Assembly (NCBI RefSeq): GCF_013315695.1
Contig: NZ_CP054353.1
Reading direction: 5' to 3' (one strand)
From: Escherichia coli
GTDB taxonomy: Bacteria; Pseudomonadota; Gammaproteobacteria; Enterobacterales; Enterobacteriaceae
Length of the DNA stretch: 64,000 nucleotides
The translations under genes were made by a program, and so were the position numbers. The notes under the pieces are model-generated. The model saw only the letters and a program-made list of their open reading frames with translations. It was not told the origin of the DNA and made no database searches. Each line of letters starts with the position of its first letter. The first letter of the stretch is position 1. Of the stretch, positions 5,520-22,700 are shown piece by piece.

Positions 5520-8042
5520 GTGACTATGTTACAGATAGTCGGCGCGCTGATCCTGCTGATCGCAGGATTTGCCATTCTTCGCCTTTTGTTCAGAGCATTA
5601 ATCAGCACGGCTTCTGCGCTGGCAGGGCTCATATTGCTGTGTCTGTTCGGCCCGGCCTTACTGGCTGGCTATATCACCGAACGCATAACCCGGTTGTTCC
5701 ATATTCGCTGGCTGGCAGGCGTATTTCTGACGATTGCCGGAATGATCATCAGCTTCATGTGGGGACTTGATGGTAAACATATCGCGCTGGAGGCTCACAC
5801 CTTTGACTCTGTGAAATTTATTCTGACCACCGCTCTCGCCGGTGGTCTGCTGGCTGTTCCCCTGCAGATCAAAAACATTCAGCAGAACGGGATCACACCA
5901 GAAGATATCAGCAAGGAAATTAACGGGTATTACTGCTGTTTTTATACTGCCTTTTTCCTTATGGCGTGTTCTGCATGCGCACCATTGATCGCGTTACAGT
6001 ACGATATTTCACCGTCACTGATGTGGTGGGGCGGGTTGTTGTACTGGCTGGCTGCATTAGTGACGCTGCTATGGGCGGCCAGCCAAATCCAGGCGCTGAA
6101 AAAACTGACCTGTGCCATCAGCCAGACACTGGAAGAACAACCGGTGCTCAACAGTAAATCGTGGCTGACCAGTTTGCAAAACGATTACAGCCTTCCTGAC
6201 TCACTGACGGAGCGCATCTGGCTGACGCTCATTTCTCAACGGATTTCCCGGGGAGAACTGAGGGAATTTGAACTGGCAGACGGAAACTGGCTACTGGACA
6301 ATGCCTGGTATGAAAGAAACATGGCGGGTTTCAACGAAAAGCTGAGAGAGAGCCTGTCATTTACCCCTGATGAACTGAAAACCCTCTTCCGGAACCGCCT
6401 GAATTTATCACCGGAAGCGAATGACGATTTTCTCGATCGTTGCCTGGACGGCGGTGACTGGTACCCCTTTTCAGAAGGTCGCCGTTTTGTATCATTCCAT
6501 CACGTGGATGAGCTTCGTATCTGTGCCTCCTGCGGGCTGACAGAAGTACATCATGCCCCGGAAAATCATAAGCCGGATCCGGAATGGTACTGCTCCTCTC
6601 TTTGTCGCGAAACAGAAACACTGTGTCAGGAAATTTATGAACGCCCTTACAACAGCTTTATTTCCGATGCAACGGCGAATGGTCTGATTCTCATGAAACT
6701 GCCGGAAACCTGGAGTACAAATGAGAAAATGTTTGCTTCCGGAGGGCAGGGACATGGGTTTGCCGCTGAACGGGGAAACCATATTGTCGACAGAGTCCGT
6801 CTGAAAAACGCACGGATCCTCGGTGATAATAATGCCAGAAATGGAGCAGACAGACTGGTCAGCGGAACAGAAATCCAGACGAAATATTGTTCAACTGCAG
6901 CCCGTAGCGTCGGTGCGGCATTCGACGGACAAAACGGACAGTATCGTTACATGGGAAATAATGGCCCCATGCAACTGGAAGTCCCCCGTGATCAGTATGC
7001 CGGCGCTGTTGAAACCATGAGGAATAAGATCCGCGAAGGTAAAGTACCCGGTGTAACCGATCCCGCAGAAGCGTCCAGGCTGATTCGTCGGGGACATCTG
7101 ACTTATACCCAGGCCCGTAATATCACCCGGTTCGGGACCATCGAATCGGTCACTTATGATATTGCCGAGGGTTCGGTTGTCAGTCTGGCGGCCGGAGGGA
7201 TCAGTTTTGCCCTGACGGCATCGGTCTTCTGGCTCAGCACCGGCGATCGCGATGCTGCCCTGCAGACAGCTGCTGTCCAGGCAGGAAAAACCTTCACCCG
7301 CACACTGGCTGTCTACGTCACAACCCAGCAACTCCACCGGCTCAGTGTTGTTCAGGGTATGCTGAAGCACATTGATTTTTCGACTGCCAGCTCGACTGTC
7401 CGACTGGCTCTTCAGAAGGGGACCAGTGCAGGAAATATCAGTGCCCTGAACAAAGTGATGAAGGGTACGCTGGTGACATCTCTGGCACTGGTAGCTGTCA
7501 CAACCGGCCCTGACATGATCAAAATGTTGCGGGGACGGATCTCCGGTACGCAGTTCATCAGGAATCTTGCCGTGGCATCTTCCGGTGTGGCAGGTGGTGC
7601 TGTCGGGTCAGTGGCGGGCGGAATACTGTTCAGTCCACTGGGACCATTTGGTGCACTGACAGGGCGTGTGGTTGGCGGTGTTCTGGGGGGAATGATTGCC
7701 TCCGCTGTATCAGGAAAAATTGCCGGAGCGCTGGTTGAAGAAGATCGCGTCAAAATTCTGGCAATGATTCAGGAGCAGGTGACATGGCTTGCCGGCAGTT
7801 TCCTGCTGACCGGACATGAGATTGAAAATCTGAACGCGAATCTGGCCCGTGTTATCGATCAGAATGCTCTGGAGATCATTTTCGCCGCCGGTATACAACA
7901 ACGGGCCGCGACCAATATGTTAATCAAACCACTGGTGGTCAGTATCATCAGGCAACGCCCCGTCATGGAATATGATGCATCCCATCTCGGCAATATGGTT
8001 AACCGACTGGAAGAAGCATTACCCCCGGAGTTACCGGCATAA
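5520..8042 (+). CDS. YeeR-like inner membrane protein (island-encoded, unknown function)
   Basis: 840-aa ORF with N-terminal hydrophobic segments, Cys-rich CASCGLTEVHH...WYCSSLC motif and C-terminal Gly-rich hydrophobic region; position after flu as in CP4-44. Confidence 0.6.
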   Translation: MTMLQIVGALILLIAGFAILRLLFRALISTASALAGLILLCLFGPALLAGYITERITRLFHIRWLAGVFLTIAGMIISFMWGLDGKHIALEAHTFDSVKFILTTALAGGLLAVPLQIKNIQQNGITPEDISKEINGYYCCFYTAFFLMACSACAPLIALQYDISPSLMWWGGLLYWLAALVTLLWAASQIQALKKLTCAISQTLEEQPVLNSKSWLTSLQNDYSLPDSLTERIWLTLISQRISRGELREFELADGNWLLDNAWYERNMAGFNEKLRESLSFTPDELKTLFRNRLNLSPEANDDFLDRCLDGGDWYPFSEGRRFVSFHHVDELRICASCGLTEVHHAPENHKPDPEWYCSSLCRETETLCQEIYERPYNSFISDATANGLILMKLPETWSTNEKMFASGGQGHGFAAERGNHIVDRVRLKNARILGDNNARNGADRLVSGTEIQTKYCSTAARSVGAAFDGQNGQYRYMGNNGPMQLEVPRDQYAGAVETMRNKIREGKVPGVTDPAEASRLIRRGHLTYTQARNITRFGTIESVTYDIAEGSVVSLAAGGISFALTASVFWLSTGDRDAALQTAAVQAGKTFTRTLAVYVTTQQLHRLSVVQGMLKHIDFSTASSTVRLALQKGTSAGNISALNKVMKGTLVTSLALVAVTTGPDMIKMLRGRISGTQFIRNLAVASSGVAGGAVGSVAGGILFSPLGPFGALTGRVVGGVLGGMIASAVSGKIAGALVEEDRVKILAMIQEQVTWLAGSFLLTGHEIENLNANLARVIDQNALEIIFAAGIQQRAATNMLIKPLVVSIIRQRPVMEYDASHLGNMVNRLEEALPPELPA

Positions 8043-11739: not shown

Positions 11740-12114
11740 ATGAAAACATTACCCGACACGCATGTACGGGAGGTATCGTGCTGCCCGTCTCCCGTCACCA
11801 TCTGGCAGACACTGCTCACCCGGTTACTGGACCAGCATTACAGCCTTACGCTGAATGACACACCGTTCGTGGATGAACGCGTGATTGAGCAGCATATTGA
11901 GGCAGGCATTTCACTGTGTGATGCAGTGAACTTTCTCGTGGAAAAATACGCACTGGTACGAACTGACCAGCCGGGATTCAGCGCAGGAGCCTCGTCGCAG
12001 TTAATCAACAGCATTGATATTCTCCGGGCTCGCCGGGCAACAGGCCTGATGACCCGCCACAACTACAGAACGGTGAACAATATCACCCTGGGTAAGTATC
12101 CGGAGGCGAAATGA
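11740..12114 (+). CDS. CbtA/YeeV-family type IV toxin (cytoskeleton-targeting)
   Basis: 124-aa [46 protein letters not shown]...; immediately downstream of antitoxin. Confidence 0.85.
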
Positions 12115-12602
12115 TGAAACTGGCCCTGACACTGGAAGCCGACAGTGTTAACGTACAGGCACTGAATATGGGGCGAATTGTCGTTGACATTGATGGTGTT
12201 AATCTCGCTGAACTGATTAACATGGTCTGCGATAACGGCTACTCCCTTCGTGTTGTTGATGAATCTGACCGGACCTCAGCAGACTGCACGCCACCATTTG
12301 TTGCCCTTACCGGCATACGCTGCAGTACCGCACATATCACGGAAACGGACAACGCCTGGCTGTACTCGCTGTCACACCAGACCAGTGACTTCGGTGAATC
12401 AGAATGGATTCATTTTACCGGTACCGGTTATCTGTTACGTACCGATGCGTGGTCATACCCGGTTCTGCGGCTTAAGCGCCTGGGGCTGTCAAAAACGTTC
12501 CGTCGTCTGGTCGTCACACTCATCCGGCGTTATGGTGTCAGTCTCATTCATCTGGATGCCAGTGCCGGATATCTGCCGGGTTTACCCACTTTCGACTGGT
12601 AA
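12111..12602 (+). CDS. YeeW-like protein
   Basis: 163-aa ORF overlapping the toxin stop (ATGA), conserved position after cbtA-like gene. Confidence 0.6.
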
Positions 12603-12618
12603 TCCGGAAATTCACAAC

Positions 12619-12795
12619 ATGAAATCATTAACCACGGAAACAGCGCTGGATATTCTGATTACGTGGCTGCAGGACAATATCGACTGCGAATCGGGAATTA
12701 TCTTCGACAACGATGAGGATAAAACAGGTTCGGCAGCACTGTTGCGCTGTATCGAACAGGCCAGGGAGGGTATCCGTACCCTGCGCCAACAGTAA
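12619..12795 (+). CDS. small island protein (YpjJ-like)
   Basis: 58-aa ORF MKSLTTETALDILITWLQDNIDCESGIIFDNDEDKTGSAALL...; ORF-track entry 12250..12795 is an upstream extension of this frame. Confidence 0.4.
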   Translation: MKSLTTETALDILITWLQDNIDCESGIIFDNDEDKTGSAALLRCIEQAREGIRTLRQQ

Positions 12796-13293
12796 CTTTT
12801 GCACCAGAACCAGTGAAGATCACTCACCCGATTTCACTTCCCTGACGTCAGCCTGAACACGGCTGGCGTTTTCATTTATAAACAGAAAGGAAAAATGATG
12901 ATGTCAGATACCACACTCTCCCGCCCGGAGGTGGTCAGCGGGCATACGGACGTTATCTATTCCACCTCAGTCTGCCACATTCTGGCTGTACGAAAGAGTA
13001 CACTGTTGCCAATCGACACAATTATCCGGCATCAAGTAAGCGATATCAGTTAACCGATATAGATGGGGAAGATGCTTTTATCCGGATTGGTTCTATCGCG
13101 ATGGTGCGAGTACCACTTGATGCAATGGAGCCTGTCGAGGAAGATGACGAGTAACAGAGCTCGGTATCTCAATCAGGACCTGATTGTCCTGGTTCGATGC
13201 CGAAAACCAGTGATTTTTCGTGTTGGTATCTGTGTTGGTATAGGATGGTGTTGTTTATTATTAACAATTTTAAATCATGAGGTTAAATCGCAT

Positions 13294-13316
13294 GTTTGAG
13301 TCCGGTCTTCGCACCA
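13294..13316 (+). repeat. tRNA-Leu (leuX-type) 3'-end-like sequence, probable island att remnant
   Basis: gtttgagtccggtcttcgcacca resembles the 3' end of a tRNA-Leu gene (GTTCGAGTCCGGCCTTCGGCACCA from memory); no upstream tRNA body. Confidence 0.4.
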
Positions 13317-13704
13317 CATCGTATGCAAATCGAGTCGCTCAAGGGCGGCTTTTTTTGTACCTGTGTTTTCACTACTTTGTTTGCATGTAACGCTGATAAT
13401 CTAAGAACTTCGGAAGCCCCATTTCCATCAATGATGTTCATTCATCATCCTGAAAATTAAGTAGATATAAAACTTCATTGCCTTGGTCTAATGGCACAGA
13501 AATAGATTGCATTTGGCGAGTGGCATTCTTAGTGCGTCGTTGTTTAGTCATGAAACGATGCGTAAAATTGCTGATTTTATGTGTCAAAGTCCCGCAACCG
13601 GAGATGGCCTTACTTCAATGATCAACCACTATTGACGTATCCTTTTAATATCTTGATTCAATTCAGCAGGTTATCGTCCAAAGTACAGCGAAGAGAGAGA
13701 AAAG

Positions 13705-16596
13705 ATGATTGGTACAACACCTTATCATGCGAAATATTTTGCGCATGAACTTTCCATTCTTCATTCAAACAATGGGGTGGACCGTCTGTCTCAATCGCTG
13801 TTTGATGCAAGCGTAGATCTAAACCCTCATCAAATTGAGGCGGCTCTTTTTGCTATCGAAAATCCGCTAAGCAAAGGTGTTGTGCTTGCCGATGAAGTTG
13901 GTTTGGGTAAAACCATTGAAGCTGGACTAGTGCTTTGCCAGTTGTGGGCTGAAAGAAAACGTAAACTGTTGATCATTTGTCCTGCTTCACTGCGTCGCCA
14001 ATGGGCGAGCGAGTTACAGGAAAAGTTCAATCTACCTTCTCAGGTGTTGGACGCGAAAATGTATAGCCAGCTTCAAAAAGAAGGGATCCATAATCCCTTA
14101 AATAATAAATCGATCACTATTATGTCATACCACTATGCTGCTCGGTTAGAAGAGAAATTGGTGGCTGAAATGTGGGATCTGGTTGTTATCGACGAAGCCC
14201 ATAAACTGCGTAATGCTCATCGAGAAAGCAACAAAATGGGGCAAGCGTTAAAGCGTGCGCTTGATGGGCGGAAGAAATTACTACTGACCGCAACGCCTTT
14301 ACAGAACTCGTTGATGGAACTGTATGGCATGTCGACGCTTATAGATGAACATACCTTCGGCGAAGTTAAAGCGTTCAGAAAGCAATATATGCAGGCAGAT
14401 AGCGATATTGCGGAGTTGAAGGGGCGATTGTCGCGTTTTATCAAACGAACTCTACGCAAGAATGTGCTGGAGTATATCAAGTATACAGAACGTAAAGCGA
14501 TCACTATTCCTTTCTATCCGAGCGAACAGGAGCAGGATCTTTATGAACGCGTACAAAAATTGCTTGAACGTGAGGATAGCTATGCCTTACCAAAACGACA
14601 CCGGCATCTGACGGGGCTTATACTCAGAAAACTACTTTCCTCAAGTACGAAAGCCGTATTGAATAACTTGCAGATCCTTAAGACTCGTTTAGAAAGGTTA
14701 AAGCTGGAAGGTATCGTTGAAGATGATATGGACATCATCCAACAGATCATAATGGATGATGATCTTGAAGATGACATCGTTGAAGATGCCGAATCAGTAG
14801 CGCCAGATACAGAGTGCAAATCTGTGGATTCAGATGCGCTTCAGGCAGAAATCAATGAGCTGGAATCACTCATTGTTAAAGCAGAACAGATTGGCACTGA
14901 TACCAAATCAAAAGAGTTGCTTTCTGGCCTGGAGCAAGGTTTTGCACAGCTTGCCGAAATGGGGGCTGCAAAAAAAGTCATCATCTTCACGGAGTCGATG
15001 CGAACTCAACAGTACCTTGCACATTTTCTGGAAAACAATGGCTACCAGGGAAAAGTAGTAACCTTTAGTGGCACAAACAATACACCGCAGGCAAACAAGA
15101 TCTACCAGCAATGGCGCGAGGAATATCAGGGATCTTCTCGTATTACCGGGTCGGCGCAAATTGATAAACGCTCGGCTTTGATCGACCACTTCAAAGATCA
15201 TGCTGAAATCATGATAGCTACAGAAGCTGCAGCTGAAGGGGTGAACCTGCAATTTTGTTCGCTACTGATCAATTACGATTTACCCTGGAACCCACAACGC
15301 ATTGAGCAGCGTATTGGACGTTGTCACCGATACGGGCAAAAATTTGATGTGGTTGTTATTAACTTCCTCAATCAGCGAAACCAGGCCGATCAACGCGTTC
15401 TTGAACTCTTAACTGAAAAGTTCAGCCTGTTTGATGGCGTGTTTGGCGCATCGGATAGTGTGCTTGGCAGCATAGAAAATGGTGTGGATTTTGAAAAAAG
15501 GATCCAGTCAATTTATGAGTCATGCCGTACCCCCGAGGAGATAGAGCTGGCTTTTGAAAGGTTGCAGAAAGAGCTGGAAGATGAAATCAATCTCAAGATG
15601 CAGAAGACGCAAGAACAGTTGCTTGAGCATTTTGATGAAGATATTCACGATATCCTTAAAATAAGGCTTGATGAAGCTCGGGAGCGCCTGGATAAAGTCG
15701 GTCGTTGGTTTTGGGCCGTGACCTGTCAGCAGCTCAAACAATATGCTGATTTTGATCATGAGCATCATCGTTTCACTTTACGTGAATCAGTCAATGAACT
15801 GCCTGTCGGGCAGTACCAGCTGTTGCGCAAAGATGGCAGGCAAAATAGTGCGTTACAAATGCAGGATCACCACAGTTTTGCATATCGGATCAATCATCCA
15901 CTGGGTGAGTACGTCATTGACGGAGCCAAAGCCCAGGAGACGAAAACAGCTGAAGTCATCTTCGATTACAGTAACCACACAACGAAAGTTTCGGTGGCTG
16001 AGCAGCTGAAAGGGCAATCAGGATGGTTAACACTAAATTTGCTTACTGTTGATGCGTTTAACAGGCAGCAATTTTTAGTCTTTACCGCGAAAACTGACAA
16101 CGGACGTGTGGTAGATGGTGAAGCTTGTAAACGTCTGTTCAACTTGTCTGCAATAACCAACGAAAAGCTGGATAATTCGGCAAGTTTAGATGCATTACCT
16201 GATGACTTGATCTTACTCAAGAACAGGCAAATTGACGCCAGGCTTGCAGAAGTTTTGGAGCAGAACAATGTCCTTTTTGAAGCGGAAAGAGATAAGCTGG
16301 AAAAATGGGCTGAAGACATGATCTTTGCGGCGGAAGAAGCATTACGCGATACCAAAATGCAAATCAAGTCGTTGAAGCGAGAAGCCAGGCTGGCGCAATC
16401 GATCGAAGAACAAAAGCAAAACCAGGAAAAGCTTAAGCTCCTGGAACGGCAGCAGAAGCGCCAACGTATGGAAATTTTTGACATTGAAGATGAGATCGCC
16501 GACAAGCGGGATGAACTCATCAGTGCCCTTGAAGAGCGGATGAAGCAAAAGACGGATATCACCGAGCTGTTTACCATCCGCTGGAAAGTTATTTAA
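13705..16596 (+). CDS. SNF2-family helicase-like ATPase with C-terminal coiled-coil region
   Basis: Motifs in translation: LADEVGLGKTIEAG (Walker A), VVIDEAHKLRN (DEAH-like), LLLTATPLQN, INYDLPWNPQRIEQRIGRCHRYGQ (motifs V-VI); C-terminal ~350 aa rich in E/K/Q heptad-like repeats. Strong RBS aagagagagaaaag before ATG. Confidence 0.85.
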   Translation: MIGTTPYHAKYFAHELSILHSNNGVDRLSQSLFDASVDLNPHQIEAALFAIENPLSKGVVLADEVGLGKTIEAGLVLCQLWAERKRKLLIICPASLRRQWASELQEKFNLPSQVLDAKMYSQLQKEGIHNPLNNKSITIMSYHYAARLEEKLVAEMWDLVVIDEAHKLRNAHRESNKMGQALKRALDGRKKLLLTATPLQNSLMELYGMSTLIDEHTFGEVKAFRKQYMQADSDIAELKGRLSRFIKRTLRKNVLEYIKYTERKAITIPFYPSEQEQDLYERVQKLLEREDSYALPKRHRHLTGLILRKLLSSSTKAVLNNLQILKTRLERLKLEGIVEDDMDIIQQIIMDDDLEDDIVEDAESVAPDTECKSVDSDALQAEINELESLIVKAEQIGTDTKSKELLSGLEQGFAQLAEMGAAKKVIIFTESMRTQQYLAHFLENNGYQGKVVTFSGTNNTPQANKIYQQWREEYQGSSRITGSAQIDKRSALIDHFKDHAEIMIATEAAAEGVNLQFCSLLINYDLPWNPQRIEQRIGRCHRYGQKFDVVVINFLNQRNQADQRVLELLTEKFSLFDGVFGASDSVLGSIENGVDFEKRIQSIYESCRTPEEIELAFERLQKELEDEINLKMQKTQEQLLEHFDEDIHDILKIRLDEARERLDKVGRWFWAVTCQQLKQYADFDHEHHRFTLRESVNELPVGQYQLLRKDGRQNSALQMQDHHSFAYRINHPLGEYVIDGAKAQETKTAEVIFDYSNHTTKVSVAEQLKGQSGWLTLNLLTVDAFNRQQFLVFTAKTDNGRVVDGEACKRLFNLSAITNEKLDNSASLDALPDDLILLKNRQIDARLAEVLEQNNVLFEAERDKLEKWAEDMIFAAEEALRDTKMQIKSLKREARLAQSIEEQKQNQEKLKLLERQQKRQRMEIFDIEDEIADKRDELISALEERMKQKTDITELFTIRWKVI

Positions 16597-16616
16597 TTGA
16601 TTTGAAAGAGAAAATA

Positions 16617-19600
16617 ATGAGTAAGTACAACGAATTAGTTAAGAAGCTAAAAGAAATTTTTCAGATTGATCGACCAGAACTGGATTTCGGTATTTATCGT
16701 ATTTTAAATGCGCGTGCTGATGAAATTAACGACTATCTGGATAATAAGCTGAAGGCCAAAATCCAGTCTGCGCTGGCGGATGCAGGAAATGCCAATAAAT
16801 CAGAATTAGAACATCAGTTGCAACTGACAATAAAAGCGGCAACTGATGCGGGTGTAGACCCTGCTGATAGCCCAAAAGTACAGGAGCTTAAAAAGCAACT
16901 GGCGGCTATGGCATCCGGAGCAAATGAGCATGAAAATGCAGTATTTTCCCATCTGCTCACTTTCTTTTCGCGTTATTATGACAACGGCGATTTTATCAGC
17001 AAACGCCGTTATAAAGGTAATACCTACGCCATCCCCTATTCTGGCGAAGAAGTGATGTTGCACTGGGCAAATAAGGACCAGTACTACATTAAAAGCGGTG
17101 AAAACTTCGCTAATTATTCGTTCAAATTAGAAGACGGTCGTAAAGTTAGCTTTAAATTGCTCGCAGCGGACACAGCAAAAGATAACCGTAAAGATAATGA
17201 ATTAGATCGCTGCTTTGTACTTATTGAGCCACATGTTCGTACCAAAATTGATGAAGAAGGCGATGAGTACGAACAAGAATATAAGCCAGTAGAAGTGGTG
17301 AAAAACTCATCTGTGGTGGACGGTAAACTCGTTGAAACAGAAGAGTTAGTTATTCACTTCGAATATAAGGCAATGAAAAAGGGCACTAAGCAGGATGCTT
17401 TAGTACAGTCCGCCATTTCAACAATTCTGGCAGATAAAACAGTTCAACAGCATTGGGTTGATCTTGCTAAACGTGCGCCAACAGAAAAGAATCCGTCACG
17501 TACAGAGTTGGAGCGTCACCTTACAACTTATACCCAGCGTAATACAGCAGACTACTTTATCCATAAAGATCTCGGTGGTTTTTTAACGAACGAACTGGAT
17601 TTTTATATTAAAAATGAAGTAATGAATCTCGATAATGTGCAAAATGCAGAAGTGTTTGCCAATGTTGAGAAACAATTGCGCATGATTCAATGTTTGCGTG
17701 CTGTTGCGCTGGAACTCATTACATTTTTGGCACAAATTGAGAATTTCCAGAAAAAACTTTGGACTAAGAAGAAGTTTGTTGTTGGGCATGAGTATCTTGT
17801 GTCACTTTCAAATCTATCAGATTCGCTTTACGATAAAATTCGAACTAATAAAGGGCAACATGATGAATGGGTTGAGCTTTATGCTGTAAATAAAATTCCT
17901 GGATATTCATTTCCATTCACAAAAGATTTCTTGTATAAAAATAATGGTATGATATTGGATACAAAATATTTTGATCCGTCATTTAAGGAGGTTTTTTTAA
18001 CAGAGTTAACTAATGTTGACGATAATTTAGATGGTCTCTTAATTAATTCAGATAATTATCAGGCCATTAATTTTTTGGAGGGGCGGTATAAGGACTCAAT
18101 AGACTGTCTTTATATTGATCCTCCGTATAATACTGCGGCTTCAGAAATTTTATATAAAAATGAATATAAGCACAGCAGCTGGAATTCATTAATGTATGAA
18201 AGGATATCTAAAAGCTATAATTTACTGAAAATTTCTGCAATTAATTTTACCGCGATAGATCATGCGGAATTATATAATCTTGGTAAGATCAAGGATGAAA
18301 TCTATGGAGAACAAAACAGGATAGCAGTTGTTACTGTTCAGCATAATCCTAAAGGGCGTAACCAGGCAAAGTTCTTTTCTGAAAATACTGAGTATATGTT
18401 AGTATATGCTAAAGATTTTAATGCTGCTAACTTTAACTCTGTAGCTATCGATGAGGATGTGCTTTTAACATTCACAGAACAAGATAATATAGGCCGTTAT
18501 CGTTGGGAAAACTTTATTCGTGCAAGAACAAGTTGGTCCAGAGCAAATAGACCAAATAACTGGTATCCTTTATACGTCTCTTCCGACTTAAAATCAATTT
18601 CTGTTGATTATGTAGATGGGTATATCGAAGTATATCCTACAACTAAACAGGGGGATTTTTCGTGGAAAAATATTAAAGAATCATTTGTTGAATTAAATAA
18701 AGATAATTATTTTAAAGCTGTAAATGAAAATGGAGAAATAAAAATCTATCATAAATATAGGGAGCAGCAAGTCTTTAAAAATCTTTGGATTGATAAGAAA
18801 TATCAGTCTGAGTTTAATGGTACAAATTTACTGAAAAACATACTTGGACAATCACTATTTGATTATCCGAAATCATTATATGCAGTACAAGATGCAATCA
18901 AAATGTCGACACCACACAATGGTATTGTATTGGACTATTTTGCAGGTTCAGGGACAACTTCTCATGCAGTAATAAACCTTAATAATTCAGATAATCTCTG
19001 TATGAAATTTATCAATGTTGAAATGGGTACTCATTTCAATACAGTAGTTATTCCAAGATTGAAGAAAATTGGATATTCAAACTTATGGAAACAATGTAAA
19101 CCAATCGGTAAACCTCAAAAAATGACTATCAAGTATTTGAAACTTGAAAGTTATGAGGATGCTCTTAATAATATACAATTACGAAGTTATTCATTGCATC
19201 AGGATATTTTCGACATTTTGGTGGAAGATGTAAAATCAGAGTTTGCTCTTAAATATATTTTTGAAAATGAATTATTTTATTCACTATTAAATACTGATAA
19301 TTTCAAAAAACCATTTAACTACGAAATGGATATTGCGACGGATTCCGCCGGTGCCACTGAGCGTAAAAACATCGATTTAGTTGAAACTTTCAATTATCTC
19401 ATTGGCTTACATGTGAAATCCATCGAATCTGATATCGCACGTGGCTATGTGCGTATTGAAGGAACGCTGCCAACAGGCGAGCGTACCCTTATTCTGTGGC
19501 GCGATTGCGACAAGATCGGTTATGAAGAATTGAATAAATATGCCAACCGATTTGATTTGTATGCAAAAGAAAACACGTTCGACGTTATCTACATCAATGG

Positions 19601-19721
19601 CGATCATAACTTACCTACCGCCTTTACCGTTGATGAAGAAGACGGCGAGATTGTTCGTAGCCTGAAAATTCGCCAGATCGAACCTGAATTCTTGAACCTG
19701 ATGTTTGCGGAGGAGGTTTAA
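16617..19721 (+). CDS. Mod-like amino-methyltransferase (beta-class, DPPY) with ~500-aa N-terminal domain of unknown function
   Basis: ORF 16602..19721; preferred start ATG 16617 (RBS gaaagag). DCLYIDPPYN (motif IV) precedes VLDYFAGSGTTSHAV (motif I) by ~270 aa, the order seen in Type III Mod enzymes. Stop overlaps SD of next gene. Confidence 0.85.
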   Translation: MSKYNELVKKLKEIFQIDRPELDFGIYRILNARADEINDYLDNKLKAKIQSALADAGNANKSELEHQLQLTIKAATDAGVDPADSPKVQELKKQLAAMASGANEHENAVFSHLLTFFSRYYDNGDFISKRRYKGNTYAIPYSGEEVMLHWANKDQYYIKSGENFANYSFKLEDGRKVSFKLLAADTAKDNRKDNELDRCFVLIEPHVRTKIDEEGDEYEQEYKPVEVVKNSSVVDGKLVETEELVIHFEYKAMKKGTKQDALVQSAISTILADKTVQQHWVDLAKRAPTEKNPSRTELERHLTTYTQRNTADYFIHKDLGGFLTNELDFYIKNEVMNLDNVQNAEVFANVEKQLRMIQCLRAVALELITFLAQIENFQKKLWTKKKFVVGHEYLVSLSNLSDSLYDKIRTNKGQHDEWVELYAVNKIPGYSFPFTKDFLYKNNGMILDTKYFDPSFKEVFLTELTNVDDNLDGLLINSDNYQAINFLEGRYKDSIDCLYIDPPYNTAASEILYKNEYKHSSWNSLMYERISKSYNLLKISAINFTAIDHAELYNLGKIKDEIYGEQNRIAVVTVQHNPKGRNQAKFFSENTEYMLVYAKDFNAANFNSVAIDEDVLLTFTEQDNIGRYRWENFIRARTSWSRANRPNNWYPLYVSSDLKSISVDYVDGYIEVYPTTKQGDFSWKNIKESFVELNKDNYFKAVNENGEIKIYHKYREQQVFKNLWIDKKYQSEFNGTNLLKNILGQSLFDYPKSLYAVQDAIKMSTPHNGIVLDYFAGSGTTSHAVINLNNSDNLCMKFINVEMGTHFNTVVIPRLKKIGYSNLWKQCKPIGKPQKMTIKYLKLESYEDALNNIQLRSYSLHQDIFDILVEDVKSEFALKYIFENELFYSLLNTDNFKKPFNYEMDIATDSAGATERKNIDLVETFNYLIGLHVKSIESDIARGYVRIEGTLPTGERTLILWRDCDKIGYEELNKYANRFDLYAKENTFDVIYINGDHNLPTAFTVDEEDGEIVRSLKIRQIEPEFLNLMFAEEV

Positions 19722-19723
19722 GA

Positions 19724-22700
19724 ATGGCTAAAAAACCGACCACCGGTAAAGCAGTTAAAAAAGAGACTAACAGCAAGCTGAGCTTTCATAAACAACTGGT
19801 TTTAAACCGCTTTATGTTCCATTTTTTCAAAGATGGCACATTGCAAGGTTTGAAGAATCGGTTAGGCGAGGATCGCTTTGAAGGCATCCATGAAGATGGC
19901 CAAAGCTTGTTCTTCCATGAGCTGAGTAACTATTTATTCGAGGTCGATCTAATCGATCTCGATGAACTGCGTCGTTACGATCTCAATATCGTGCAGCACT
20001 GGCAGCAGATAACCGAGCACCGTAATCGTAAAGAAGACACTGTGCTGAACATGAAATATTTTCAGTACTTGTCGCTTCTGTTTACCGAGATCTACCTGGA
20101 CTGGTACTTCAATCGTAAACAGCAATTACTCGATGGGCTAAATAACGAGCTGGCAGCATACAATGCTGAAAATGATAAAACAGCAAAAGACCGGGCTAAT
20201 CAGTTCAAATCATATGTTCTGGATGATTTGAATAAATTGGCATACTGGAACGCTACTGGTTCTGGTAAGACACTGCTATTACATGTCAATATTTTGCAAT
20301 ATTTACATTATTTCCAGAACGGTAATAGCCATCATTATCCGGATAAAATCATCCTGCTTACGCCGGATGAACGCCTGTCGAAGCAACATTTAGATGAACT
20401 GGAAAACTCAGGGTTTACCCAATACCAGTTGTTCGATAAGAGTAAATCAGCGCCCTTCAAAGGCACGATTGAAGTCATTGATATCAATAAACTTGATGAT
20501 AAAATGGGCGACAAAACTGTTGCCGTTGAGGCATTTGAAGGCAACAATCTGGTCCTGATTGATGAAGGGCATAAAGGCACAGGAAGTGCTGCTGGTGCCT
20601 GGATGCGCCGTCGTGACAAGTTAACTCGTGACGGATTTGCGTTTGAATATTCAGCAACTTTTGGCCAGGCAGTAGCCGGTGGCAATAATGTGGAGGCAGT
20701 TGAAACAGAAATTCAGAAGAAAAAAGCAAAGCTGCTTTTTGAAACAACTGCCTTAGGCAAATTGAGCGAAGAAGAGTTAGCACAAATAGCATTAACCAGC
20801 GAAGAACAACGTGATGCGCGTATTCAGGCGACGCGAGAAGTCTATGGGAAATCGATTCTGTTCGATTACTCCTATAAATTCTTCTATGAGGATGGTTATG
20901 GCAAAGAATCACTGATTCTTAACCTTAATCCGCAAGATGATAAAAAAGATGAGCGTCGGTATGAGTATTTTACCGCGTGTTTGCTCAGCTTTTATCAGCA
21001 ACAATATTTATTCAATAAAAATAAAGAAAAATTAAATGAATTTAATATCGAAAAACCGCTGTGGGTTTTTGTCGGTAATTCTGTAAGTGGTGAAGATTCA
21101 GACATTCACGCAGTATTGCGTTTTTTAGCATGGTTTTTAAACCACGAAACGCAGGCAAAAGCGTGGATTAACGATCTCATTAAAAATAAAGCGCGAATCC
21201 TCGATACCAAAGAGCGTAACATTTTTGAAAATCGCTTTACTGCACTAATGAACGCTCCGGAAGATATCTACGCAGATATTCTTTCTCGCTTGTTTAACAC
21301 CACTCACTCTGGTCAGCGACTGCGAGTTCTGAATTTAATAGGCAGTAAAGGTGAACTGGCATTACAGGTTGGTGAGGCCGAACCGTTTGGCCTTATCAAT
21401 ATTGGTGATGCACCGTCTCTTTACAAAATGTGTGAAGAGGATACGACATTTGATTATCAGAGAGATGATTTTGCAAAGTCGCTCTTTCATACGTTAAATG
21501 ACAAAGACTCGCGACTACATATTTTGATCGGCTCGCGAAAATTTACTGAAGGCTGGAGCAGTTGGCGCGTCTCAACGATGGGATTGCTCAATATGGGCCG
21601 TGGAGAAGGTTCACAGATCATTCAGTTATTTGGCCGTGGCGTTCGCCTTAAAGGTCGCAATTATTCTTTGAAACGCAGTACACCCGGTGAGCGTCCGAAA
21701 GGGTTGCATCTGGAAAAATTAGAGACACTGAATGTATTCGGTGTACGTGCCGATTACATGGCAACCTTTAAACAATACCTGGAAGATGAAGGGATTACGC
21801 CAAGTGACGAGATCCTTGAGCTGAATTTTGAAACTCGGCCAAATATGCCAGCAACCAGGCTTAAAACACTTAAGCTCAAAGATGGTTATAAAGATAATCA
21901 AAGACTCGGCTTTAAACGTGTCTATTTTCCCGAATTGTATGAAGTTCCTGCTGATTTTCAGGGGAAAATTAAGCAGCCGCATATTAAGCTGGACCTATAC
22001 CCGAAACTTGAGTCGATTGATACCAGCAGAAAAGGGGAAAATACTCCGGTTAACGTGCGTAATGAAGCGAAGTTAGATTATAAAATCATTAGTGCGTTTG
22101 ATTTTGATCGGCTTTATCTCGCCATTCAGAATTATAAACTACAACGCGGCTGGTCAAATTTACGTGTGGATAAACAACGTTTGATCGACTTTTGTACCGG
22201 TAAGACAAAGATCGGAAATAGTTGGTATACCCTTTTGATTCCAGCTTCAGAACTTGAGATTAAGCAATATGCAGATATTGCTAAGCAGGAAGATATTATG
22301 CTTCGTCTGCTGACTGATTATACTGATCGCTTTTACAACACATTGAAAAATGCTTATGAAGGTCAGTTTTATGAAGTCACGCAGGTGAAAGAAGATGATC
22401 CTGGTATGATCAAAATGTACCATTTCGAGATCGAAGAAACTGATGATGGGTTGGCATATGCCAGTCGGCTGGAACAATTACAACAATTGGTCATCGACGG
22501 CGAAATCGGTAAAGCAAAATCCTGGAGTGCATCCGGGATGGTTGCTATTACCTTTGATAAACATCTCTATTATCCACTTCTTTCGATTGAAAAAAATGCC
22601 AACATACCGCTAAAAATGCGACCGGCAGCACTGGGTGCATCAAGTGAGATTACTTTTGTCCATGATCTTCAGTCTTTTGTTGATTCGACAAAAGGGCAGA

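Follow-up and report, generated by a model that had tools for sequence, protein, structure and literature searches.

A probable attR at a displaced leuX 3′ end between a CP4-type module and a restriction operon in Escherichia coli

Between a CP4-type gene module and a three-gene defence operon of Escherichia coli lies what is very probably the attR (positions 13222-13358) left by the integration at leuX of an island with a P4-family integrase; the site would now be a fossil, with the operon outside it. The window, by which we mean the whole 64-kb stretch of DNA that was analyzed, runs from the distal part of the leuX-associated variable region into nanM, nanC, the fim operon, and uxu of the E. 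coli chromosome. The assignment draws on sequence identity, synteny, partner repeats, and arm geometry, from which we infer binding by the integrase and the loss of excision.

In the proposed course of events, an island equipped with a P4-family integrase would have integrated site-specifically into leuX, the tRNA-Leu(CAA) gene, thereby separating the tRNA gene from its trailer and terminator. The junction left behind would consist of a P arm with two arm-type repeats, a defective 20-bp core, and the leuX trailer and terminator. The attR would then form the distal limit of approximately 87 kb of integrase-delivered DNA, namely a P4-like satellite and a 76.7-kb composite ending in a CP4-type module, and the SNF2/Mod/Res operon would start past the displaced terminator, in a slot that holds differing restriction systems depending on the strain.

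The displaced leuX end and its integrase arm

The tRNA-like end, gtttgagtccggtcttcgcacca, occupies positions 13294-13316 on the plus strand. The K-12 leuX gene ends in ...GGTTCGAGTCCGGCCTTCGGCACCA (also given as ...GCCGGTTCGAGTCCGGCCTTCGGCACCA), from which the window copy departs by two C>T changes and one absent G, leaving 21 of 24 aligned positions that match. An ungapped 24-mer search missed the copy because of the 1-nt deletion, and an 18-mer test was used in its place: the pattern GTTCGAGTCCGGCCTTCG, drawn from leuX and not from the window, finds its sole window match (two or fewer mismatches allowed) at 13294-13311 with two mismatches, against 0.00 matches in 100 dinucleotide shuffles. 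Only the 3′ T-loop, the T-stem, and the acceptor strand of a tRNA are present; a cloverleaf with D, anticodon, and T arms is not. ARAGORN called 0 tRNA genes in the 64-kb window, and Rfam returned no match at 13294-13316 at either the gathering or the E ≤ 10 threshold (weak matches nearby to snoR160, MIR5298, HOTAIRM1_2, and C0299 were set aside as chance). The original prediction, namely a tRNA-Leu 3′ end without any tRNA body, is upheld by the 18-mer match, with none by chance, and by the negative ARAGORN and Rfam searches. It had also placed the repeat between the last CP4-type gene and a three-gene operon, which the window annotation (taken from MSB1_4I) bears out: DUF5983, DUF957, and two gene fragments precede it, and the operon spans 13705-23104.

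As a displaced and defective leuX 3′ end, the attR core covers 13292-13316 on the plus strand (ATG followed by TTTGAGTCCGGTCTTCGCACCA) and is homologous to the 20-bp att core of satellite phage P4, GAGTCCGGCCTTCGGCACCA. The P4 reference attP reads …cattaacttattttgATGTTT-GAGTCCGGCCTTCGGCACCA-ttcttac…, where the annotation places the att core in the last 20 bases before the flank and, further upstream, a pair of 12-nt arm repeats. Directly left of the core, ATGTTT is common to the window and the P4 attP (gATGTTT-GAGTCCGGCCTTCGGCACCA), at the place where leuX itself has CCGGTTC. The left boundary of homology falls exactly where the P4 att core begins on its left side.

Further upstream on the plus strand, two direct repeats of GTTGGTAT are found at 13222-13229 and 13234-13241, at a 12-nt spacing. 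Measured from the core GAG, their GTTGGTA motifs begin 76 and 64 nt upstream; in P4, the repeats annotated as "attP arm sequence repeats" (two copies of GGGGGCA) begin 75 and 63 nt before the core. GTTGGTA also occurs in the int-proximal arm beside the PAI II536 and K-12 IntB integrases, and a third element type, in strain 47-1826, has GTGGGTA starting 77 nt before the core and GCGGGTA 12 nt further on. Judging by this geometry, the window pair presumably represents the integrase arm-binding sites of the P arm.

On the other side of the core, positions 13317-13358 (plus strand) hold the displaced leuX trailer and a Rho-independent terminator, with a hairpin at 13332-13351 and a T-run at 13350-13356. 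The terminator scan gives an 8-pair stem followed by the T-run, and the centroid fold shows the hairpin too. The same sequence stands directly 3′ of an intact leuX in A26 and GB089. The site is more than a 23-nt scar: it is a full attR, with arm-type repeats and a displaced leuX terminator.

However it arose, the good Rho-independent terminator at 13332-13356, which separates the CP4-type genes from the operon, would keep read-through from reaching the SNF2 gene, and the block is conserved in many genomes. Both points would suit a functional small RNA or regulatory element, be it a transcribed tRNA-fragment mimic or an insulating terminator. We nevertheless find such a role very unlikely: the site corresponds to no Rfam family, there is no plus-strand promoter-like site within 12800-13800, the fold of 13290-13365 is no more stable than that of shuffled sequences (z=-0.11), and the conservation is accounted for by shared descent of an att site.

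To the left of the core, positions 12398-13291 (plus strand) represent the right-end segment of a CP4-type or PAI II536-type island, comprising the 3′ part of the DUF5983 gene, the DUF957 gene, two gene fragments (one of a helix-turn-helix regulator), and the att P arm. Together with the core and terminator (12398-13358), the segment is 93.1% identical over 961 nt to positions 4836500-4837454 of the E. coli 536 record, the right end of PAI II536. Primer Concat 1, published for detecting the circular form of PAI II536 (PMC3202238), matches the window at 13082-13101 with 1 mismatch.

The E. coli 042 copy at the same position reads ATGTTTGAGTCCGGCCTTCGCACCA, and the C>T change at 13306 is private to the window copy. 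A hybrid leuX carrying the window 3′ part is still called as a tRNA by ARAGORN in silico, but with its acceptor stem shifted and a C·C mismatch. With one G absent and two C>T changes, the window copy probably could not restore the tRNA precisely.

Partner repeats, the unoccupied site, and the variable slot

An att remnant calls for a partner, and the partner repeats lie beyond the 64-kb window. They were read not in the source strain but in MSB1_4I, which is the best match to window positions 1-25000 (99.9% identity). There, an intact leuX (record 4587501-4587585) is situated 87.5 kb upstream of the window copy, and next to it comes a 10.8-kb P4-like satellite with integrase, psu, delta-like, and primase genes. 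A second displaced copy, gATGTTTGAGTCCGGCCTTCGCACCA (ATGTTTGAGTCCGGCCTTCGCACCA; record 4576712-4576737), is located 76.7 kb upstream of the window copy and is 25/25 identical to the copy in E. coli 042; behind it come a terminator and an integrase pseudogene, annotated with an internal stop. The original prediction had proposed an alignment to leuX and to a proximal att site upstream of the window, and this alignment indeed yields both, the latter beside an integrase pseudogene. MSB1_4I thus offers an intact tRNA gene and a partner repeat at the integrase-proximal end, in the same orientation as the window copy.

The 76.7 kb between the second copy and the window copy contain IS elements, a grp microcompartment, virK/lpxM, fec, and the CP4-type module, and the MSB1_4I annotation lists no further integrase between the two displaced copies. 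Beside the pseudo-integrase, the arm carries GCGGGTAC / GCGGGTAT / GTACCCAC repeats of the GCGGGTA type, whereas the window P arm is of the GTTGGTA type. Because these arm-repeat types are mismatched, the 76.7 kb must be read as a composite with ends from different elements and not as one intact island; the segment is best explained, on the evidence of its arms, as a fusion of at least two islands. The picture of a single island that ends here is thereby only half retained: the terminus stands, yet the DNA to its left is a composite with two integrase types at its ends.

A cognate functional integrase, of the IntB or PAI II536 type, is absent from the annotation of the composite. We file the attR as a fossil because the integrase present is a pseudogene of the other arm type and the core has lost a G; with its core mutated and its cognate integrase missing, the site has presumably lost the ability to support excision.

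Elsewhere to the left of the attR, positions 2031-2267 match the Rfam IS102 (IsrC) small RNA at 66 bits, above the gathering score, just upstream of an Ag43 gene; the same arrangement of IS102 (IsrC) and then Ag43 is known from the K-12 CP4-44 prophage. To the right of the attR, fimB (28752-29354) is cut short by a stop at codon 162, ahead of the region with the C-terminal catalytic tyrosine, and in MSB1_4I the gene is annotated as a pseudogene with an internal stop. FimB expression depends on leuX.

The distal flank was defined by searching window positions 13160-14700 against 5,426 complete E. coli genomes. Matches occur in 2148/5426 genomes, and most of the sampled rows span only the first 156-204 nt of the query; in many genomes, identity with the window stops at 13358-13363 and gives way to divergence. 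In A26, on the other hand, the match begins at query base 135, i.e., at window position 13294, where it overlaps an annotated tRNA-Leu. The gene order of A26 is ahr, leuX, SNF2, methyltransferase, helicase, hypothetical gene, restriction-gene fragments, nanS′, and nanM. Its intact leuX (…CTTCGGCACCA) is followed by catcgtatgtaaatcgagtcgctcaagggcggcttttttt… and then by the same leader as in the window, and BLAST finds the two sequences colinear over 13294-17783 (97.9%) and 19280-26000 (98.0%). Since colinearity starts at 13294, everything to the right of this position is the DNA downstream of leuX without an insertion, and what lies to the left is inserted DNA. A26 therefore represents the unoccupied site, in which the tRNA gene abuts the distal flank. 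With the leuX match syntenic and the A26 alignment starting at exactly 13294, the predicted identity of the repeat as an att remnant of a tRNA-integrated island is confirmed.

These data also bear on the simplest objection, namely that the repeat resembles leuX by chance or is a decayed duplicate of a tRNA gene that owes nothing to site-specific integration. The absent tRNA body and the imperfect match to leuX would allow such an origin. The absence of any match in the shuffles speaks against it, as does the homology to A26, which begins exactly at the core and runs for kilobases. The boundary moreover falls on the edge of the P4 core, the arm repeats lie at P4 spacing, and a partner copy stands beside an integrase. 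The partner copy, the colinearity with A26, and the shuffle test refute the objection, and we consider it close to impossible.

Past the terminator, the same P arm, core, and terminator carry varied right flanks across E. coli genomes. The slot holds an Eco31I-family type II system and McrBC in ATCC 25922, a membrane protein and a phosphorothioate-dependent endonuclease in 47-1826, and an HNH endonuclease in isolate 2-101; in R4, an IS21 element has inserted into the core end. This R4 element (~7156), an IS21-family ISEc12, sits within the last core bases (…CTTCGCACC|tgcg…) and parts the core from the terminator. In the window, the stretch from the operon to nanM (~23764-25169) carries fragments of a phosphorothioate-dependent restriction endonuclease without its N-terminus, a piece of an HNH endonuclease, and a truncated nanS. 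Strains 536 and 47-1826 have an intact form of the first endonuclease, as 2-101 does of the HNH gene; by this comparison, the fragments look like the remains of earlier slot occupants.

Could the distal flank itself be part of another island? An integrase gene comes after the same terminator block in GB089 and other strains, and the window and A26 part from the GB089-type arrangement 7 nt past the T-run (gtacctg|tgtttt vs gtgcctg|aaatcc). Going by these arrangements, the distal flank may be what remains of an older island and not ancestral chromosome. In that case, the site would double as the left junction of another, earlier leuX island, one that contained the defence operon and has lost its integrase and right repeat, making the operon cargo of a tandem array of islands and not chromosomal flank. 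Pointing in this direction are the trailer and terminator followed by a P4-family integrase gene in arrangements of the GB089, OkiPb01713, and UC4224 type, the portability of the operon (93.8% identity beside tia in FDAARGOS_1261), and the truncation of the far-side nanS in every strain examined. On the contrary, the 64-kb window holds no integrase and no further leuX-like repeat, and A26 has no other mobility gene between leuX and nanS′. We regard such an older island as possible, if on the unlikely side; it would add to, and is compatible with, the attR assignment proposed here.

The defence operon and the missing G of displaced cores

The operon is preceded by a leader region (13359-13704, plus strand) that is colinear with A26 downstream of the intact leuX and lies outside the att-bounded island. 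All three of its genes are on the plus strand. The first (13705-16596) encodes a DrmD-like SNF2-family helicase of 963 aa (PADLOC DrmD PDLC02619, E=4e-199; RefSeq "SNF2-related protein"). The second (16602-19721) encodes a Mod-like type III methyltransferase of 1039 aa, which fits PADLOC MTase_III PDLC03646 over its full length (E=0), and the third (19724-23104) a Res-like type III restriction enzyme of 1126 aa, a DEAD/DEAH helicase that likewise fits PADLOC REase_III PDLC03654 over its full length (E=0). By these PADLOC models, the adjacent Mod and Res genes that define a type III system are present, and the operon is thus predicted to combine a type III restriction-modification pair with an SNF2 helicase. 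A DISARM assignment was rejected, as only the DrmD-like protein is present and the other two proteins fit type III Mod and Res over their full length; the annotation near the operon holds neither a DUF1998 nor a PLD partner (the DISARM core of DrmA, DrmB, and DrmC is absent).

The middle of the Mod gene (17783-19280) shows only ~10-50% identity to the A26 allele over alignment columns ~400-950, and both ends are nearly identical. This looks like a swapped target-recognition region, which would imply another specificity in an otherwise 98%-identical operon.

With tolerances of up to 3 mismatches or 4 edits, no second leuX-like copy was found in the 64-kb window, and the defence operon consequently lacks flanking leuX repeats. 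In FDAARGOS_1261, the operon recurs at 93.8% identity, from about window position 13481, in an unrelated island beside tia and CS1-type fimbrial genes. This locus (12001-23031) comprises SNF2/Mod/Res, a small hypothetical gene, and a phosphorothioate-endonuclease pseudogene at ~94% identity, with transposase fragments flanking. Judged from this locus, the SNF2/Mod/Res module appears to move without leuX sequences. The operon also follows a P4-like attR in one IMG/VR contig and a CP4-type attR in the window and 96 other genomes. Since it abuts an intact leuX in A26, sits within an unrelated island in FDAARGOS_1261, and follows different attRs, it is a separate module and not cargo of the CP4-type island. 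The original prediction had left a choice between a separate module and the terminus of the island for the defence cassette. A26, FDAARGOS_1261, and ATCC 25922 settle this choice: the operon lies beyond the att-bounded DNA, as a module of its own.

Returning to the core, the absent G turns out to be a general trait. Displaced copies read …CCTTCG-CACCA, one G short, nearly without exception: the G is absent in all sampled E. coli junctions, in 8/8 IMG/VR P4-like prophage ends with six different right flanks, and in 55/57 metagenomic copies. The loss spans three element arms and at least seven right flanks. Only functional leuX, the P4 reference attP, and the remaining 2/57 metagenomic copies have the GG form. 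These two GG-keeping cores lie at 250-274 and 1748-1772 of their contigs, and in one of them a P4-like arm runs into the native catcgtatgc terminator flank, the arrangement to be expected after a recent integration into an intact leuX. A scan of genome contigs for the core brought up a sole contig, a mislabelled MAG with an E. coli junction, which is uninformative on other species.

The position of the missing G is altered in other ways as well. Strain 536 lacks two bases there, and strains 2-101 (~7139-7180), KTa005 (~515-560), and 15.03CC (~539-585; all locus coordinates) carry the 8-bp CCTTCGCA in three or four tandem copies. These expansions are suggestive of a local mutational hotspot.

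Two placements of the crossover were weighed and rejected. An exchange to the left of the G fits the behavior of PAI II536 and the P4 attP, yet it predicts GG at the internal junctions of tandem arrays; an exchange to the right fits the linkage of the lesion to the element arms, yet it conflicts with PAI II536 and P4. The circular attP of P4-like satellites (core followed by TT) was sought in metagenomes, and none was found. The loss of the G could be recurrent or under selection, with leuX held "hostage" by its islands as a result, an idea that we rate as rather improbable. Were it true, and were strands exchanged left of the G as the experiments on PAI II536 imply, any excision would leave leuX with the defective end, and loss of an island would cost the cell its tRNA5-Leu, stabilizing whole tandem arrays. 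Alternatively, the position may be the cleavage site of the integrase, with the lesion made by the enzyme. A near-universal deletion of a single G could bear on the stabilization of tRNA-linked islands.

Comparison with known leuX-linked elements

The kind of feature described here is already known, and the current understanding of it is unchanged. Both the P4 core and the direct leuX repeats that accompany PAI II536-type islands were recognized decades ago. What is added is the exact position of the boundary, the recognition that the array is tandem and composite, and the finding that the defence module is independent. For annotation, the value of the site is that of a base-exact boundary between ~87 kb of integrase-delivered DNA and the distal DNA. 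A tandem, composite array with mismatched ends and without a working recombination module is best treated as fixed.

With satellite phage P4, whose attP and attB serve for comparison, the site shares the core GAGTCCGGCCTTCGGCACCA at the leuX 3′ end, ATGTTT to its left, and paired arm repeats ~63/75 nt upstream. It differs in the arm repeats (GGGGGCA in P4 versus GTTGGTA in the window), in a P arm that is otherwise diverged, in a core without one G, and in that no P4 genes adjoin it.

A second point of comparison is provided by the tRNA-anchored defence hotspots. Variable islands are anchored at leuX in both E. coli and Salmonella (PMC9009780), 18 defence hotspots of E. coli are located at tRNA loci (PMC10121019), and leuX is a recognized anchor of hypervariable, defence-rich DNA (PMC9009780, PMC10121019, PMC7545054). 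In line with this, different restriction and defence systems lie downstream of leuX depending on the strain. The window operon differs from such hotspots in being distal to the attR, outside the integrase-bounded element, and without a mobility gene of its own.

The closest relative is the attR of PAI II536, which shares the locus, a P arm with two copies of GTTGGTAT, a displaced terminator, and a defective copy of the leuX 3′ end. The two copies are not the same: strain 536 has ATGTTCGAGTCCGGCCTTCG--ACCA (two bases missing, TTC), whereas the window has ATGTTTGAGTCCGGtCTTCG-CACCA. The left end of PAI II536 shows leuX, then an GTTGGTAC…GTACCAAC arm and an intact integrase. Thus, the cognate integrase adjoins leuX in strain 536, whereas in the window's strain (as read through MSB1_4I) leuX is followed by a P4-like satellite and then by a pseudogene integrase of the other arm type. 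The cargo differs as well, with hly, prf, and hek in 536 versus grp, fec, virK, and Ag43 in the window's strain. PAI II536 excises, circularizes, and reintegrates into leuX via a P4-like integrase (PMC3202238). Taken together with these mobility data, the 93% match identifies the window site as the orthologue of an experimentally characterized attR.
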